42,187 nucleotides of DNA, taken from contig CALCYP010000036.1 in the NCBI GenBank assembly GCA_937906635.1, forward strand, positions 1 through 42,187. Direction: 5' to 3'. Position numbers and translations under genes: made by a program. The notes below the pieces were generated by a model that saw nothing but the letters and a program-made list of their open reading frames with translations, searched no databases and had not been told where the DNA came from. This document shows, piece by piece, positions 7,987 through 20,165 of the stretch (the stretch's first letter is position 1; every line of letters begins with the position of its first letter). This stretch comes from an uncultured bacterium. Its GTDB lineage: Bacteria; Patescibacteriota; Gracilibacteria; Absconditabacterales; Absconditicoccaceae.

Positions 7987-8268
7987 ATGACTATAAGTGA
8001 TTTAATGAAAAAGGGTGACTCCTTCGAATTTCTCCCAGGGATTCACAGTAGAGTTCTGCATGTAAAAAAAGGCGCCGACACAGTATCACATCAAATCAAT
8101 GAAGTCGGTGAGTTATTTGCTCATCGATTTAAATTGTATTACGATGCAAACAAAGAAAGATTTGTCGCTTCAATCGCAACCAATTCAAAGCCAAAAAAAT
8201 TTTTTGGTTCGAACATTGACTTGGTATTGTCCACTGTCAGAACTTGGGAAAAACGACAAGGAAATTAA
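7987..8268 (+). CDS. Hypothetical protein, 93 aa (UGA-free cassette 1)
   Basis: Runs ATG to TAA. All 6 Gly codons are GGN with no in-frame TGA. It has its own promoter and terminator. I recognise no family. Confidence 0.65.
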   Translation: MTISDLMKKGDSFEFLPGIHSRVLHVKKGADTVSHQINEVGELFAHRFKLYYDANKERFVASIATNSKPKKFFGSNIDLVLSTVRTWEKRQGN

Positions 8269-8284
8269 CTCATAAAGCTTATAA

Positions 8285-8312
8285 AGAGTCCGTAATTTAC
8301 GGCTCTTTTTTT
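8285..8312 (+). terminator. Intrinsic terminator
   Basis: agag(t)ccgta-att-tacggctct followed by a T7 run. Confidence 0.7.
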
Positions 8313-8326
8313 AATTACAAAAAAAA

Positions 8327-8390
8327 TTGCCCCGACGCGGAGTCGAATTTACCCCGTTATTCGGGGCCGCGATTTCTATCCTACAACTTT
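8327..8390 (-). pseudogene. Decayed tandem copy of tRNA-Arg
   Basis: 29 bp (8319-8347) are identical to the tRNA 3' end and its flank (8407-8435). D-loop-like ggatag and aatcgcgg are retained and the anticodon arm is missing. A ccccg-aataa-cgggg hairpin is inserted in the T arm. Confidence 0.5.
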
Positions 8391-8415
8391 ATAGACTTTC
8401 AAATTTAAAAAAAAT

Positions 8416-8487
8416 TGCCCCGACGCGGAGTCGAACCGCGATTGCAGTCTTCGCAGGACTACGTCCTATCCATTGAACGACCGGGAC
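8416..8487 (-). tRNA. tRNA-Arg (anticodon GCG), 72 nt, CCA not encoded
   Basis: Hand-folded cloverleaf: acceptor GUCCCGG/UCGGGGC; D arm guuc-aauggaua-ggac; anticodon arm uaguc-CU GCG AA-gacug; 4-nt variable loop; T arm cgcgg-uucgacu-ccgcg; discriminator A. Confidence 0.8.
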
Positions 8488-8568
8488 AAATTTCATGATA
8501 ACAATGACATATCATAATAAAATATTTTAAAATCGCAAGTAATATTTTGATAAAAAACTCAAAAAAAA

Positions 8569-8597
8569 TTTGCATTATTCTTTTTTCTGATTATAAT
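8569..8597 (+). promoter_or_regulatory. Sigma70-like promoter
   Basis: TTGCAT (8569-8574), 17-nt spacer, TATAAT (8592-8597). Confidence 0.55.
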
Positions 8598-8610
8598 AAT
8601 ATCTAGTCAA

Positions 8611-8661
8611 CAGTCAGTAGTCGGCAGACGACTGCAGACAGACGACCGACGACTGACGACC
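8611..8661 (+). repeat. Heptamer array (CNGACGA family) forming a long hairpin in the 5' UTR of the 8687 gene
   Basis: Units read cagtcag tagtcgg cagacga ctgcaga cagacga ccgacga ctgacga. Arm 8613-8624 pairs with 8646-8657 at 11 of 12 positions. The stretch is GC-rich and T-poor in an AT-rich context. Confidence 0.7.
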
Positions 8662-8686
8662 TTTATCTATTAATAAAAAACAAAAA

Positions 8687-9286
8687 ATGACAGAAACAAC
8701 AAACACAAGCAACGAAAATGTTGTACAAAAACACAATCAAATGGTTCAATTCGTAAAAAACACAATTTCTACAATTGAGACAGATTTGAAAAGAATGAAA
8801 TTAGTTTTGAATAAATTATCAAATTTTGATCCAAATGATCCAGCTTCTTTAGATGACAAAGAAGTTTCAGAAGCTATTGGTACACAAGAACTCAAAACTT
8901 ATACAGAAGAAAATGTACAAGTGGTTGAATGAAAATTCGATTGATATTTCATGGTCGGAGCTGATCAAAAGAAATATCCAGTCCCATTGAATTATTCAAG
9001 TAAGACAAAATTAGTTCCATGAGATATCTTGAAATTAAAAATCTTGGATAATGGACAATTCGTATATAAATTGATTAACCCAGTAGAAAGGAAGCATATC
9101 AGAGCCACATTGAGCAAAACTGATGATAATAAATTCACAGCTGTGACAGACGATGGACAGACATTCTTTTTGAATCAGGCTGCTGTCACATTCTTCAAAT
9201 GAAGACCTGGAGATGAATTATATATTTTAACAAATGAAAAAGACAATTGAGGTTTTGCAGCTATCGAAGCAGTAATTAAGAAATAA
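8687..9286 (+). CDS. Conserved hypothetical protein, 199 aa
   Basis: The standard-code ORF (81 aa) continues through 5 TGAs: ...VVEGKFDGYFMVGADQKKYPVPLNYSSKTKLVPGDILKL...FFKGRPGDELYIL...NGGFAAIEAVIKK, ending at TAA. The TGAs fall in PGD/DG-type turns. Confidence 0.8.
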
Positions 9287-9307
9287 GGATTTTATTTCAG
9301 ATAGAGA

Positions 9308-9346
9308 AAAAGCACTCATCCATTAAATAAATTGAGTGCTTTTTTA
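9308..9346. terminator. Hairpin terminator between convergent genes
   Basis: aaagcactca-N15-tgagtgcttt followed by a T run. Confidence 0.65.
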
Positions 9347-9362
9347 TTTTCCGAGATTTATA

Positions 9363-10895
9363 CTACTCTGCTACTTTTCTTATATCATCTATACAAAGCT
9401 GAATCTCTTTTATCTTTACAAGTGTTTTTGCATTATCCAACATCGGTTTTAATTCCCTAAGAAAGTCCAATCTTTTATCCTTGTATATATCTTCATAACC
9501 CTTTTTATTCCGCATTTTATTCAAGACTTCTTGTAAAAAATTTCTATCAATGGATCAATCATCACTTCAAAACAAATTAATTCGAGACTTTTCTCATAAT
9601 TTTAAATATCGGATATTTTTTATTTTGTCCAGTATCTGCTTTTCTCTATTTGGAATGGATGATTCCAGTAATAAATCAGCATTTTCTTTCGTCATTGAGA
9701 AAAGCGAAATAATAAAATCACTATCATCCACATCCAAAAAAGAATCTATCGTATGTTCCCATTTTTCCTCGTTCAACACTTGCTTTTTTAATTGTTCAAA
9801 TCCTCAAAAGTATTTTTTGACCATATTTTTTATTTTTTTAGATTTTATTTTATCAAAATCAATTGTTTCAACTATCATACTACCTTTTCTCAGTTCTTTG
9901 GCTCTCTCCTTTGCTTCATTAGAAAAAATTTCATTTTCTTCATCCTGTTTTTCTTTTGTAAGTCATTTTATCTGCCGAACTACATCTTCATCTTCCGAAT
10001 ATGCTCAAATCATCTCTCATATTTGTTCTTCATAGATATTTTTTTTTGAAAGTTTTCATTTCTTTGGATTGATAAATATAGATTTTCAAAAATCAATTAC
10101 ATAAAGCTTTCCATCATCTCAAAAAATTATATTTTTTTCATGTAAATCTCTATGATAAAATCAATTTTCATGTATTTTTTTAATAAATTTTCGTAATGCT
10201 AATCTATACTTTTCTCATTCTTTACTTCAAAATATTTTGATTTTACCTCTTTCTTTATAAAAAGCTTCATCGGCTTTTTTGCTATCATATTCATACCATT
10301 CCAAAAATATATGATCTACATCAGAATCAGATTTGGCAGATTTTATCCTATTCCTCAAATTATTTGCCTGTTGCTGTGCTACATTTTTTTCCATTTCACT
10401 TTTTCATGTCGCACTTGCTTCAATTTGCTTAGCTTTTGCTTCGATAATTCATTCAGCAATCTTATGATAAAGTGTTTTTCATTTTATGAAATCCATGATA
10501 ATGTAATTATCTCATTTATGAGAAAACATTCACCATAATCTTGGAATTTGAACAGGCTCTCATTCTTGTACTAATTTTCAAATTCTTTCATGTAACGAAT
10601 ATTCGTTATCAGGATTATTATCAAATCTCTTCTTTGCTACCAAAAGTTCCTTTTGCTCTCAATTATCATCCAAAACAGTAATTACAAAAATTTCTCATTC
10701 AGATCAAGAAGCATATATTTCATTTTTGTCTGATGTGTTAATTTTGTCTATAAGCACTTTCATTTGGTCTTCAAAAATTTTAGGATCCTTCAGTCTCATA
10801 TTAAAGTTCACATAAATTGCATTTTGTACATTCTGATTCAATTCTTGTCTTGAATTATTACTTTCAGACTCTATTTTTCTTTTATCTCATTCCAT
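9363..10895 (-). CDS. Eukaryotic-like (Hanks/RIO-type fold) protein kinase with an uncharacterised ~220-aa C-terminal region, 510 aa
   Basis: Gly-rich loop ASGSEGEIFVI, LLVAKKRF lysine, catalytic loop FYHRDLHEKNIIF, and DFG (YVIDFGKS). 21 in-frame TGAs were counted by hand. Confidence 0.8.
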
Positions 10896-10984
10896 ATTAT
10901 ATACTATAACAAATTAAATATTATAATTATACTCAAAAAACAATAAACAAGCTAAATTTTATACAGCTTTTTTAAAAAAATGAC

Positions 10985-11012
10985 TTGACTTATAATACAA
11001 AATACATATAAT
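10985..11012 (+). promoter_or_regulatory. Sigma70-like promoter of cassette 2
   Basis: TTGACT (10985-10990), 16-nt spacer, TATAAT (11007-11012). Confidence 0.55.
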
Positions 11013-11034
11013 TAAAATTCAAAAAACAAAAAAA

Positions 11035-11304
11035 ATGTTGAATTTTGAGATTTCAAAAATCGCTGTTGGCAATCCGAACTCAGCAGAGTTCAACTTTGCG
11101 ATTAAAAATCAGCAGCAAACAATAGCTCTTGCCAAGTACCTAAAAAGTATTGGCATCAAAGGACATGATTATGAAGGGCTTGAGGATGAAGTTATTTCTG
11201 CAAACATATGTATTTGGGCAGACGACATATTCATCGAGCAACTCATAAAAGAGTTAAGCAAGTGAAATTCACTTGCTTTATTTTTATTTGAAAAATTTTT
11301 GTAA
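11035..11304 (+). CDS. Hypothetical protein (UGA-free cassette 2): 76 aa to the first TGA (11263-11265), 89 aa to TAA under code 25
   Basis: All 4 Gly are GGN. The only in-frame TGA lies in the terminator stem. I recognise no family. Confidence 0.6.
11256..11289 (+). terminator. Intrinsic terminator overlapping the 3' end of cassette 2
   Basis: aagcaagtg-aaatt-cacttgctt followed by tatttttattt. Confidence 0.7.
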
Positions 11305-11344
11305 AACAATATTAAAGTATCTGTTTATATCAAAAAATATTTTC

Positions 11345-12244
11345 ATGAACAAAGCAAATGAGCATAGCAAAGAACTATTGGAAAAATATTTGAGAGAATC
11401 TACCACAAATCCCGAAAAAAATAGATTTTTCATATTAGTATGACCTCACGGAATTTGAAAATCCGATATCGCAATACAATTATCAAAAATCATTTTATGA
11501 GATTTTTTTTATAATGATTTTTTGCATATCAGAGATTTTTCAGGACAATTATGAAAGGAACATGAACTAAAGGTCGAATATAAAGAGGATAATAAAACCA
11601 GTAAAGAATTATTTGATACATATTGATACAAAGACTTATGAACCAGAGAAATCAACGAATGGCTATCGCTATCTCCTGCCGGTACAAAAAAAATATTATT
11701 GCTGGAAAATATAGAAAGGATGAACAAAGCCGCCATAAATGCTTTTTTGAAAACATGTGAAGAGTTGCTACCAAATTGTATCATTTTAGCCACAAGTAGC
11801 AATAAATCCAGAATTTTGGATACAATCCTCTCCAGATCTATAATAATTCCATTTTTTGAATATACAGAAGATGAGCTTTTGAAATATTGTGATGAAAAAT
11901 GATATTTTGCTTGAGATAATAATTTAAAAGAATTAGTTTGTTTGATGAGCCAATGAAAAATGTGAACATTAGATTTATTTCACGAAAAGTTATCTGACAA
12001 CGAAGAATTAAAAGATAAGTTCACAAGCATAATTCAGACATTACAAAATTCTACCATTTGAGTAAAATACCAAGCACTGCTTGATATAAACACTGCATGA
12101 TTTACTGAACAATTTTTGGATTGATTAATTGCATATTACATCCAAAAAAATCAATTCGATTTGGCACAAAATTGGTTGAATGTTAGGAAAATCATTTGAA
12201 CAAACGTAAGGAACGAAAACTTGCTATTTTCTGGATTAATCTAA
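11345..12244 (+). CDS. holB: DNA polymerase III delta' subunit, 299 aa
   Basis: Motifs seen: ILVGPHGIGKS and KILLLENIERMNKAAINAFLKTCEELLPNCIILATSSNKSRILDTILSRS. Confidence 0.85.
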
Positions 12245-12302
12245 TCTTGACTTACAACAAATAATGTTTAACATTATGATTCATAAACAAAAATAATCAA
12301 TT

Positions 12303-12623
12303 ATGGTCAAATTTGTTGTTATATTTTTAGTCGTGATAACATTAGCTGTAATTTATTGCTCATTGTATGCTTTAATATATGGGAAACACAAATGGATTTT
12401 AGCTATTGTTAGTACAACATGTACTGTCGTTTTAGTCCTATTCATTCTACACCTATTGGGAATTACTAACTATATAACTATATATTTAGGAAAACCCAAA
12501 TGGGTAATGCTAAGTATGATAATATGGATATTTACCATAGCTATTATTCTAGACAAAGTGGAAGAAAGACAAGAAGATGAAAGACAAAAAAAGGCTTGAT
12601 TATCAAGCCTTTTTCATATTTAA
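12303..12623 (+). CDS. Small 3-TM membrane protein (UGA-free cassette 3): 98 aa to the first TGA (12597-12599), 106 aa to TAA under code 25
   Basis: Three hydrophobic helices and a charged tail EERQEDERQKKA. All 3 Gly are GGN. A TTGACT box lies at 12247-12252. The TGA lies in the terminator stem. Confidence 0.6.
12591..12614 (+). terminator. Intrinsic terminator overlapping the 3' end of cassette 3
   Basis: aaggcttga-tta-tcaagcctt (9-bp stem) followed by a T-rich tract. Confidence 0.7.
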
Positions 12624-12692
12624 AGAAATATCTCATTTTGAAAAAAAGGACCTCGAGGTTTCAATTGAAACAAAATACCAGGGTGTAATTCC

Positions 12693-13670
<978 letters not shown>

Positions 13671-13746
13671 TTTTTATTTTTTTGATATAAACTATTTTGC
13701 TTATACTGATTTTCAAGGCTTTTTGCAAGATTAATTGAAAAAATAA

Positions 13747-13817
13747 GTCATTTCGAATCAAAGATGAGAAATCCATAAATGTTAAATGGATTTCTCCTCG
13801 TTCCTCGTCGAAATGAC
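13747..13817. repeat. Nested inverted-repeat (MITE-like) element
   Basis: Outer inverted repeat gtcatttcga ... tcgaaatgac and inner hairpin gagaaatcca...tggatttctc. I estimate about 80% similarity to 28630-28702 by eye. Confidence 0.75.
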
Positions 13818-13833
13818 ATATTTTAATTATTCA

Positions 13834-15456
13834 TTAATTCAATCATGCTTTCACAAGTCCAAGAAACAATGGATGTGGTCTATTTAGTCTTGATTTAAAT
13901 TCTGGATGGGCTTGTGTAGCTACAAAATATTTGTGTTCTGGCAACTCAATAAATTCAACCAGACTTCCATCTGGAGATTTTCCAGAAAATACAAGTCAAT
14001 TTTCGGATAATATTTCATGGAAATTTGGATTTACTTCAAATCTATGTCTATGTCTCTCTTTCACTAAATTTTTGGCTAAATCAATTTGGTTGAATTCTTT
14101 ATATAGATGCCAAACTTTGGTATCAGGAGTCAAAATAGCATCATAGGAACCCAAACGCATCGTTCATCATTTATTTGTAATTTGCTTTTGGCTTTCCATA
14201 ATATCTACTACATTAAATTCATTGTCTGGAGTAAATTCTCCACTATTTGCTTTTGGAAGTTGGCATACAGATCTAGCAAAAGCGATAGTAGCGACTTGCA
14301 ATCACAAGCACAATCATAAATATGGAATATTTTTTTCTCTACAGAAATTCGCTAAATTTATCATTCATTCGACTCCTCTATCTCAAAATCATCATGGAAC
14401 AACGATTCAAACGATATTTTTCTGGTTACATAAATTTCTCAAATCATCTTCTCGTCATTCTGATTCATAATTTTCAGTATCAATTCGTTCAAGATTTATC
14501 TTTGTATCATAATATGCTCAAGCATGCTTCAAAGCCTCAACGACACTGATGTATGAGTCGTCCAAATGTGTATATTTTCATGCCAATCCTATTGTAAGTT
14601 CTCTATTCGGATTCTGAAGTTTGTAAAGTAAGTTTTTTCGCTCTGTGAGGTCTGATTTTTTGTCTTCATTAAATAATCTTTTTATGATTAAACCATCCAA
14701 TCATTGATTTTGAAATGAAATTGGAAGTTCATAAATATTTTGATCCAAATTTTCGATTATTGAATCTTCTGACATATCACAAAACATTGATAACTTTTTC
14801 TTTAATCAATCTTGTAATGGACGATTTGTCCTACAAATCAATATATCAGCTTGAATTCCGAGTTCTCTAAGTTTTATGATAGAATGCTGGATTGCTTTTG
14901 TTTTCATCTCTCCAGAAGTCGTGACTGTGACAATCGGTGCTACATGGACAAAAAGCACGTTTTCTTTCCCAAGTTCATATCTGAGTTGCCTCATACTCTC
15001 TATGAAATGTGGTCATTCAATATCTCAGACTGTACCACCAATTTCAATGATTGCCACATCACTTCAATTTGCTATTTTTTGAATTCTACGCTTTACTTCG
15101 TTTGTGACATGAAGAATTACTTGGACAGTTTTTCATAGGTAGTCTCACCTTCTCTCTCTTTTCATGACAGATAGGTAAATTTGCCCCGTTGTAGTACTGG
15201 AAAATCTCGTCAATTCCTCATCAATAAATCTCTCATAATGTCCTAAATCCAGATCTGTCTCAAATCAATCATTTGTGACAAAAGTCTCTCCATGTTCGTA
15301 TGGAGACATCGTCCCTGCATCGATTTGCAGATAAGGATCCATTTTTCCCATTGTCACTTTGTATCAAGCAGACTTTAACAATCTTCCAATTGAAGCCGCT
15401 GTAATTCATTTACCTAAACCAGAAATTACTCATCAAGTCACGAAGATTAGTTTCAT
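13834..15456 (-). CDS. pyrG: CTP synthase, 540 aa
   Basis: N-terminus [61 protein letters not shown]. The internal segment reads [28 protein letters not shown]. Confidence 0.93.
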
Positions 15457-15535
15457 TGATATTTTTTAGGTGGTAAAATAATTATATACTCATGATTAAT
15501 GAATTTTCAACACAAAATTTTATTAAATTTTTCTA

Positions 15536-15563
15536 TTGACTTATATTATTTGATAGATATATT
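15536..15563 (+). promoter_or_regulatory. Sigma70-like promoter of cassette 4
   Basis: TTGACT (15536-15541), 16-nt spacer, TATATT (15558-15563). Confidence 0.5.
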
Positions 15564-15597
15564 CTCATAGTAAAAGCAAACAAAAAACATCAGCCAT

Positions 15598-16218
15598 ATG
15601 AGAGAAAAACACATCAGGAAATGCCCCTGCAAAGAGAAAAGACAGAATTCTCTTTCTGAAAAAATGAACGAATTAATGTACCGTTTCGGCAAAGATCCAA
15701 ATGGCACTTTAATTGGATTAGAAATTAGCGATATAATACTACTACTGGGCCAAAAAGGAAAGATTTCGGAAAAAGACTACGAACTCGTATTCGATACTTT
15801 TCTTAGCCGAGCTAGTGTTCGCACCCTTATCAAATTTGCTGAGAAATACGGCAATGAAGATAAAAGAGACAAAGTCCTGAATACTATTTTTTCTAGGAAA
15901 AGCTATGAAGACGGAAGACTTGTCTATCTAAACGCAAAGAAGAGGGAAAACAAGCTCAGAGGGATTAAGATGATGAAAGATGCATCGTACAATTCATTCA
16001 TCTACATCCTGCACAAAGCCATCCAACATCACGACCTTTTGATGCAAGGAGAATTGGATGGAACAGTGAAAAATGAAGTCATAGATTGCCGCAAAAAATG
16101 GCAGACAATATACGGCTTCGAAAGGGAAATCGGTTCTGATTACCAGGATTCAAAGTATAGAGTTGAAATACTCAAGAAGCTTTTGGATCCTGATATAAAA
16201 AGTATCCAACTGAACTAA
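15598..16218 (+). CDS. Hypothetical protein, 206 aa (UGA-free cassette 4)
   Basis: Intact in the standard-code track, ATG to TAA. All 12 Gly are GGN. CGN Arg codons are frequent. A hand count of the first ~120 nt gives about 37% G+C, against about 32% for the start of ruvB. I recognise no family. Confidence 0.7.
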   Translation: MREKHIRKCPCKEKRQNSLSEKMNELMYRFGKDPNGTLIGLEISDIILLLGQKGKISEKDYELVFDTFLSRASVRTLIKFAEKYGNEDKRDKVLNTIFSRKSYEDGRLVYLNAKKRENKLRGIKMMKDASYNSFIYILHKAIQHHDLLMQGELDGTVKNEVIDCRKKWQTIYGFEREIGSDYQDSKYRVEILKKLLDPDIKSIQLN

Positions 16219-19752: not shown

Positions 19753-19868
19753 GAATATTGTTTTATAAATATTTCTAAATACACTTGATTTTTTGTGTGC
19801 CTTTTGTAAATATTACCGTTGTATTGTCCGACATGGTGTTGGACATAGTAATAACTAAATCTATTTAT

Positions 19869-20165
19869 ATGCAAAAATTAAGTATTGTAGGGGCTGTACG
19901 AGTCCCTGAAGACATTCCAAATCTGGTTCAAAATCAAGGAGATGCCGAGTTAATTATGACTCCAAACTATGAATTTCATAGAAATGAAAAAGGTTACACC
20001 ACTAGAGCACTACTGAATGTAGATGGTACGAAGTATTTTATTACCCAAAACACGAAAGACCAATCTCTATCAATAGGCTATCTTGAAAAAGAACCAGACA
20101 AAAAAACTCGCAGAAAAATTAAAAAAATCGTTGATGCTAAGTTTTTTTGAGACAATAGACCATAG
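19869..20165 (+). CDS. Hypothetical protein (UGA-free cassette 5): 93 aa to the first TGA (20148-20150), 98 aa to TAG under code 25
   Basis: ATG at 19869, with an alternative ATG at 19833. Promoter-like TTGATT (19785-19790) and TAAATA (19807-19812). All 5 Gly are GGN. The terminator follows directly. Confidence 0.6.

Follow-up and report, generated by a model that had tools for sequence, protein, structure and literature searches.

The closest published parallel to the genes described here comes from predicted phages of Gracilibacteria and Absconditabacteria that are compatible with genetic code 11 (Liu et al. 2023, mBio, PMC10746230). That paper describes genes that occur around hosts using code 25, have no in-frame TGA, sometimes end in a TGA stop, and are nearly identical under both codes. 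Cassette 2, the small gene studied here, resembles them in these respects. It lies upstream of holB on contig C36 of genome G000, from an uncultured bacterium of the Absconditicoccaceae; the contig, analysed over its full 42,187 nucleotides, is called the window. In contrast to the phage genes, cassette 2 and its kind are single chromosomal cassettes that stand between core genes (kinase, holB, trpS, and CTP synthase), with no relative found in viral contigs, and near back-up stops are not the rule among them, most next stops lying beyond the terminator. Liu et al. also report the prophages of these hosts as code 25. Our preferred reading, to which we give a probability of about 0.6, is that cassette 2 is a standard-code-style member of a dispersed, compositionally foreign class of TGA-free genes, that its single TGA, which falls in a terminator hairpin, is now most likely read as glycine, and that its terminated transcripts would be without a stop codon.

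Messenger RNAs that lack a stop codon are rescued by tmRNA-SmpB and by ArfB. A transcript of cassette 2 that ends before an in-frame stop would likewise strand its ribosome, and tmRNA, SmpB, and an ArfB-like protein are all encoded; unlike the textbook non-stop mRNA, however, the predicted state would be built in by the mismatch between gene and host code, with no mRNA damage or premature termination. In Bacillus subtilis, Johnson, Lalanne and Li reportedly found in 2020 that stop codons abut or overlap intrinsic terminators and that transcription and translation are uncoupled. The stop position of cassette 2 also lies inside a terminator stem, as it does in some native genes of this genome, but in B. 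subtilis the codon at that place is a true stop, whereas here the host is without a factor known to read TGA. In Condylostoma and Blastocrithidia, codons are stop or sense depending on position, through eRF1 and proximity to poly(A). Here, too, the same triplet is sense internally and marks a 3' end, and TGA is depleted just before native stops, but none of the results shows UGA to act as a stop, and the depletion does not track predicted terminators. A UGA joined to a hairpin also recalls the bacterial SECIS element. A selenoprotein reading was rejected on the T-tract that follows the hairpin, the fold that ends before the UGA, and the ordinary cloverleaf of the tRNA(UCA); a search of the genome found no SelB wing domain.

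The host reads TGA as glycine (code 25). In G000 (1.57 Mb, 135 contigs, 92% complete), TGA makes up 5.0% of the codons in 577 open reading frames (ORFs) of at least 300 codons and 69% of their Gly-type codons, with TGG at 0.7%, and translation with TGA as G yields strong Pfam matches for CTP synthase, TrpRS, Tex, and holB. The single tRNA(UCA) (C57:5561-5634) folds as an ordinary cloverleaf of 74 nt and has the same acceptor stem (GCGGGT/ACCCGC) and discriminator T as tRNA-Gly(UCC), which are Gly identity elements. One release factor with a PCRF domain was found, which scores 449-452 bits on RF1 models (over the cut-off) and 268 bits on prfB (cut-off 370). RF2 was not found in this 92% complete genome, the only other RF-1-domain protein being ArfB-like. 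For ribosome rescue the genome encodes tmRNA (57.2 bits; gathering score 47), SmpB (E 1e-33), and a GGQ protein with a Lys/Arg-rich basic tail, which scores 64 bits against a 100-bit cut-off for ArfB and hence is called only ArfB-like. The gene for the latter (C104:24740-25297; L053 1339-1896) contains four TGA codons and adjoins a TGA-free gene with a sorting tail. The assignment of TGA to Gly agrees with the published account of this bacterial group (PMC6851277).

The cassette 2 ORF (11035-11265) has 76 sense codons and reads ...KELSK-TGA, with no earlier in-frame TGA. This TGA forms the last three bases of the 5' arm of the hairpin and pairs with TCA 11269-11271 (Table 1); the sequence directly 3' of the hairpin is TATTTTTATT. 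Under code 25, the frame continues as ...KELSK-G-NSLALFLFEKFL-TAA, with 89 sense codons of which that TGA is the only one. The sequence-only reading had put the only in-frame UGA in the terminator stem and the code-25 stop past the U-tract, and sequence and translation bear out both (TAA 11302-11304, T-tract 11279-11289); it also had the hairpin itself right, drawing it with 9 bp and a 5-nt loop where we find 10 pairs and a 3-nt loop, a trivial difference. A 71-nt fold has an energy of -17.6 kcal/mol (z = -4.43), and none of 200 shuffles was as stable. Positions 8000-16000 of the window hold 15 terminator-like sites, against 2.9 +/- 1.6 in shuffles. At 11256-11289, three marks of an intrinsic terminator are present: a stable stem containing G-C pairs, an adjoining T-tract, and a structure kept in relatives. 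Intrinsic terminators usually release the RNA 7-9 nt after the stem. The first code-25 stop begins 24 nt past the stem, downstream of both the 3' arm and the T-tract, and so lies beyond the usual release point. An origin of the hairpin from a repeat or mobile element was rejected, since its sequence occurs nowhere else in the genome, apart from the match of this palindrome to itself on the opposite strand.

By its sequence and its predicted structure, cassette 2 is a real, self-contained small gene with a promoter-like site, a leader, a compact alpha/beta domain, and an intrinsic terminator. The A-rich leader is about 16 nt long, and no Shine-Dalgarno site was found in it. All four Gly codons of the ORF are GGN and two are GGC, a codon that accounts for 4% of native GGN codons. 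The GC content is 0.373 and GC3 is 0.389, versus 0.283 and 0.227 (sd 0.064) in small native genes, and by its non-Gly codon score the ORF falls under the 5th percentile of small native genes. AlphaFold2, run on the 89-aa protein with a three-sequence alignment, gave a mean pLDDT of 83.6 and a pTM of 0.71. The model is a beta-beta-alpha-alpha-beta-alpha fold with pLDDT >90 across most of residues 11-70, a last helix at 64-75, and a domain that ends at K76; the 13-residue extension is of low confidence (mean pLDDT 52 for residues 81-89). A fold search of the PDB with this model returned nothing at E <= 0.001 (best E 1.5). A search of 5.8 billion proteins with the 89-aa sequence retrieved only itself, in an entry whose TGA had been translated as W; a sample of 101 family genomes gave chance-level hits only (best E 0.007); Pfam gave no family at E <= 0.01 for the ORF; and PADLOC gave no match for the small proteins. 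A BspA-type leucine-rich repeat (Pfam LRR_5) was considered and rejected, as the hits were only weak, repeat-summed HMMER hits to giant LRR_5 proteins; the predicted fold, a beta-alpha domain with no solenoid, also speaks against it.

An independent 9.4-kb contig of run X2 covers 10700-12800 without a break, with the TGA and hairpin unchanged and one synonymous change in the ORF. The X2 strain also has five base differences and one deletion at window positions 10964-10998, within and just upstream of the cassette 2 promoter-like site.

Few loci are available for comparison, and these are themselves related. G059, the closest genome within the genus (holB 73% identical), has at this place the same promoter-like site (TTGACT...TATAAT), a 73-codon TGA-free ORF that ends AGA-TGA just before a different hairpin, and the same T-tract; in that frame, the next TAA or TAG comes 74 codons later, within holB. 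In L045, a metagenome locus, the site reads TTGACA...TATAAT, and the 74-codon TGA-free homologue ends GGC-AAG-TAA, with the TAA in the hairpin loop. These two small ORFs are 43% identical (E 3e-14), and the window ORF is collinear with them and faintly similar (global alignment z of 4.1 versus L045 and 3.3 versus G059); by BLASTP alone, the similarity was not significant. The AGC-AAG-TGA of the window aligns with the GGC-AAG-TAA of L045 and also with the TGA of G059. Since the TAA of L045 stands at the same position, TGA 11263-11265 is the stop position of the family. The proposal that the gene was built to end at its TGA is supported by this alignment together with the predicted domain end at K76 and the placement of native stops described below. 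The TAA of L045 looks like a repaired state. The code-25 tail of the window ORF is not shared by the relatives. Among 141 family genomes (G000 included), the L045 protein matched only G059 and did not match the window ORF at E <= 0.001; another search returned only the L045 protein itself.

A hairpin of unrelated stem sequence (-11 to -21 kcal/mol) stands right before the T-tract in 8/8 loci that have the TTGAAAA block. Its presence in every locus at a fixed distance from holB lends good comparative support to the prediction of a working terminator; the stems themselves cannot be aligned. The protein-kinase-like gene co-occurs with the small ORF in three loci, and both are missing in four (L038, L040, L041, and L044), where the terminator of an upstream 199-aa gene abuts the same T-tract. 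The block conserved upstream of holB may be the holB promoter.

TGA-free genes form a discrete class of about 2% of the genes, as counted with a home-made gene caller, which gave 1328 genes (82% coding), and a terminator scan that was likewise home-made, with no curated annotation. In the 1021 called genes that contain 8 or more Gly-type codons, the distribution of the TGA share has its peak at 0.6-0.9, and 17 genes are without TGA where 0.006 would be expected; five further genes have a single TGA each, at the very end or ahead of the true start. These genes sit singly between TGA-rich genes and form no islands. The class has a GC content of 0.34 versus 0.29, and GGC makes up 12.9% of its GGN codons versus 4.1% (chi-square p = 1e-20). 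A Shine-Dalgarno site was not seen to mark the class (1/25 TGA-free versus 15/1079 native genes, p = 0.31). Nine of 20 members searched against Pfam had matches: CHAP three times, Amidase_6 twice, Gln_deamidase_2, a type-IX secretion sorting domain, and an acyltransferase. A PIN-PhoH ATPase and NDK also belong to the class. On contigs C82, C35, C100, C77, C90, C85, C104, and C111, proteins that resemble secreted enzymes are frequent in the class; they are about 280-470 aa long and have a CHAP, Amidase_6, or Gln_deamidase_2 domain at the C-terminus. Two of them have a type-IX secretion sorting tail, one by Pfam and one (C104) by reading of its sequence.

Among TGA-free ORFs with a terminator, at least 70 codons, and at least 3 GGN codons, 31 end in TAA, 16 in TGA, and 7 in TAG (54 ORFs), a stop usage that looks like that of the standard code. 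The next TAA or TAG lies beyond the hairpin in 13 of the 16 TGA-ending cases, by up to 406 nt. We estimate that about 3 of the 16 are chance segments of native genes; C60:7490-7768 and C60:7895-8170 lie inside one native gene. The arrangement of a TGA at a terminator is more than chance: in 10 of 49 terminator hairpins that have an in-frame TGA and a frame open beyond it, that TGA is the first after at least 70 TGA-free codons, against a background of 657 of 28,786 in-frame TGAs (2.3%; binomial p = 1.4e-7). The conflict of codes that the sequence-only reading had described at one defined site is not peculiar to that site, being a property of a class of genes in this genome.

From the observed anatomy, host code, homology of the stop position, and existence of the class, we infer the decoding, the transcript end, and the fate of the product. 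As no RF2 was found, UGA 11263-11265 would most likely be decoded as Gly by tRNA(UCA), and ribosomes would open the hairpin and continue translation through the 3' arm and the T-tract. RNA polymerase would release most transcripts in the T-tract (~11285-11289), about 15 nt before the TAA. On such transcripts, which would have no stop codon, the ribosome would stall at the 3' end; rescue would come either from tmRNA-SmpB, with tagging and degradation of the product, or from the ArfB-like factor, with its release, and the run-off product would have the form ...KELSKGNSLALF..., with or without a tmRNA tag. Transcripts that read through would stop at TAA 11302 and give an 89-aa protein with a hydrophobic, Phe/Leu-rich tail (GNSLALFLFEKFL) ending ...EKFL, which would merely be the translated hairpin arm and T-tract. 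In 154 native genes with a predicted terminator, the TAA or TAG lies upstream of the hairpin in 142, in the 5' arm or loop in 10, and beyond it in 2, and the gap between stop and hairpin is 0-10 nt in 20 genes. With native stops placed against or inside hairpins in this way, terminators here probably act regardless of the ribosome, as is reported for Bacillus, which would favour the non-stop outcome.

Several points weigh against this account. The transcript end and the product are deduced from geometry. The strong promoter-like site, the confident predicted fold, and retention in three genomes argue for a gene in use, which would fit badly with a product that is mostly tagged for degradation. 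All three members of the cassette 2 family are TGA-free (12 Gly codons, all GGN), as is cassette 3 in three loci, and since 55 of 193 conserved Gly sites in the neighbouring native genes switch between GGN and TGA, this looks more like maintained avoidance than a passive relic. Under coupled transcription and translation, a ribosome that does not stop at the UGA could suppress the hairpin. Furthermore, viral contigs contained no relative of the small-protein alignment or of the TGA-free CHAP protein by a method that detects close relatives only.

If the terminator is leaky, or if a UGA-reading ribosome suppresses the hairpin, the normal product would be the 89-aa protein, with its end at TAA 11302; no non-stop state would arise, and the conflict would exist on paper only. 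holB, 57 nt downstream, must be transcribed, the TAA is only 13 codons past the TGA, and Liu et al. describe TGA stops with nearby back-up stops in code-11-compatible phages (PMC10746230). However, 13 codons is the distance expected by chance in A+T-rich DNA, as estimated from base composition. With the next stop 74 codons on and inside holB in G059, and beyond the hairpin in 13/16 class members, there is no sign that near back-up stops have been selected. The hairpin and T-tract are kept in all eight loci, the conserved block that follows could hold a promoter of holB's own, and the tail of the 89-aa protein is of low confidence in the AlphaFold2 model. Overall, we consider a leaky or suppressed terminator unlikely, though it deserves to be kept in mind.

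In a more speculative and rather improbable proposal, code-25 bacteria retain the dispersed, code-neutral (TGA-free) accessory cassettes through selection, about a third of those with a terminator end in UGA, and the C-terminus is set by the terminator and ribosome rescue (ArfB-like release or tmRNA) and not by a release factor. If this were true, stop-codon-independent termination would be a routine part of the expression of intact genes, and the depletion of TGA ahead of native stops would be a mark left by this position effect. Across 923 native genes, TGA's share of the Gly codons drops from 0.72 to 0.56 within the final six codons (odds ratio 0.5, p = 8e-8). Among 18 amino acids, a drop in the main codon before the stop is found only for Gly, and for Leu TTA rises. 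The depletion is still seen at free 3' ends and has no counterpart at 5' ends, and it is not stronger in native genes with a predicted terminator (0.65 versus 0.57). It may reflect tails recruited from 3' untranslated regions or a mild effect of position on UGA.

This depletion also keeps alive, at low odds, the view that UGA depends on context, as a genuine stop at a terminator hairpin or near the mRNA 3' end and as Gly when internal. The TGA placed exactly where a relative has TAA, cassette bodies that are TGA-free across diverged relatives, and a class that is all-or-none, with no continuum, are in keeping with such a stop. However, no RF2 was found, the lone full-length factor scoring as RF1 and the other RF-1-domain protein being ArfB-like; a Gly-type tRNA(UCA) is present; the foreign codon signature is a simpler account of the lack of TGA; and the 3'-end depletion is no stronger at predicted terminators. 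We know of no mechanism for a context-dependent UGA stop in bacteria, and we regard this view as very unlikely. Least credible of all is the idea that 11035-11262 is not a gene but a leader, attenuator, or small RNA before holB whose frame is open by chance, which can draw on two large protein searches that gave no homologue but the protein itself, the lack of a Pfam family, the codon score below the 5th percentile of native genes, and the position directly upstream of an essential gene, but which must contend with 76 codons free of all three stops in DNA of 27-37% GC (~1e-3 per frame by estimate), an open frame at the same place in two other genomes, a confident fold prediction from just three sequences, and four related loci that keep holB and its upstream block without the element, so that holB does not need it.

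Table 1. Features of the window around cassette 2 and larger members of the TGA-free class on other contigs (contig number before the colon)
Feature	Position	Strand	Description
Protein-kinase-like gene	9363..10895	-	24 TGA; divergent from cassette 2
Cassette 2 promoter-like site, TTGACT-16-TATAAT	10985..11012	+	11/12 consensus matches
Cassette 2 core ORF	11035..11262	+	76 TGA-free codons; protein MLNF...KELSK; short A-rich leader
Terminator hairpin (predicted)	11256..11278	+	AAGCAAGTGA-AAT-TCACTTGCTT; 10-bp stem, 4 G-C, AAT loop
Sole in-frame TGA of cassette 2	11263..11265	+	Standard-code stop; Gly77 under code 25
Code-25 extension	11266..11304	+	NSLALFLFEKFL plus TAA at 11302-11304
T-tract, TATTTTTATTT	11279..11289	+	Start of the block conserved upstream of holB
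Conserved holB upstream block (TTGAAAA ... AAAACAATATTAAAGTATCTGTTTATAT)	11290..11344	+	55-61 nt before the holB ATG
holB (DNA polymerase III delta')	11345..12244	+	Native, 14 TGA; PF13177, E 2e-16
Cassette 3	12303..12623	+	98-codon TGA-free membrane protein; TGA 12597-12599, hairpin 12587-12615, TAA 12621-12623
PhoH-like class member	C65:16635-18023		
NDK class member	C129:10661-11074		
CHAP class member	C35:29470-30516		

As for the origin of the class, its distribution is patchy; the CHAP family, for one, was found in 4 of the family's 141 genomes (counting G000) and in none of the genus's 8 further genomes. Together with the foreign codon signature and a sorting domain typical of another phylum, this patchiness points to a gene pool compatible with the standard code. 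The class would not simply be a fresh import, since the TGA-free state is common to strongly diverged relatives at the same loci and a TGA-free NDK lineage occurs in several genera. Within the family (loci L032-L037), NDK falls into two lineages, one with 1-8 in-frame TGAs, the other, present in several genera, with none; the TGA-free lineage ends in TAA elsewhere and in TGA in G000, where the next stop is 89 codons on. Full-text searches of the literature yielded the phage paper and none on chromosomal TGA-free genes with TGA stops in code-25 bacteria.

A sister case, cassette 3, adjoins holB on its other side. Its ORF (12303-12599) ends AAG-GCT-TGA inside a hairpin, with a TAA 8 codons on. 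The homologue in L040 (51% identical) and a positional analogue in L038 likewise end AAGGCT-TGA within a hairpin, and their next stops follow 21 and 11 codons later, respectively; the cassette 3 protein had no match in the 140 other family genomes. In G059, hairpin-rich short elements (e.g., AAAACGGCTCGAAT.GAGCC) occupy the place of cassette 3 downstream of holB (L025 2420-2700). Sequence like these elements follows a TGA-free ORF on C65 of G000 near 15076, and they may form a small repeat family. In L029 (genome G090), short tandem repeats (AACACGATAAAACGAT-like) form a long array about 250 nt upstream of holB; a large inverted repeat and then a T-tract come after it. The protein-kinase-like gene that is divergent from cassette 2 gave, in PADLOC, only short catalytic-loop matches to PD-T4-6 defence kinase models.

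Two other ORFs in the window are, to judge from their codons and ends, further standard-code-style units. One (15598-16218) has 206 TGA-free codons, 12 GGN codons (5 GGC), a TAA stop with a terminator 3 nt on, and a promoter-like site of its own at 15536-15563; the other (19833-20165) has 105 TGA-free codons and a TGA end, with a TAG five codons later, upstream of the hairpin. The 3' end of tRNA-Arg(GCG) at 8415-8488 (TTCGACTCCGCGTCGGGGCAATTTTTT) is repeated about 88 nt away (8330-8347 and 8418-8435), which looks like an integration scar. A 93-codon TGA-free ORF (7987-8268; 6 GGN codons, GC 0.369) adjoins this repeat.

Code-25 gene callers add false C-terminal extensions to such genes, reaching 89 codons for NDK and 74 for the G059 relative. 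Reassignment of a stop codon is often called a firewall against gene exchange, and this genome allows the firewall to be studied site by site. Among native genes in which TGA is Gly stand intact, promoter-driven genes of standard-code type, and about 16 of the latter have a stop that the host has no known way to read. These sites are natural test cases for whether such ends lead to tail extension, to rescue and degradation, or to release, for selected avoidance of TGA, and for the repair of imported genes, on which the TAA of L045 versus the TGA of the two other family members is one case that bears.

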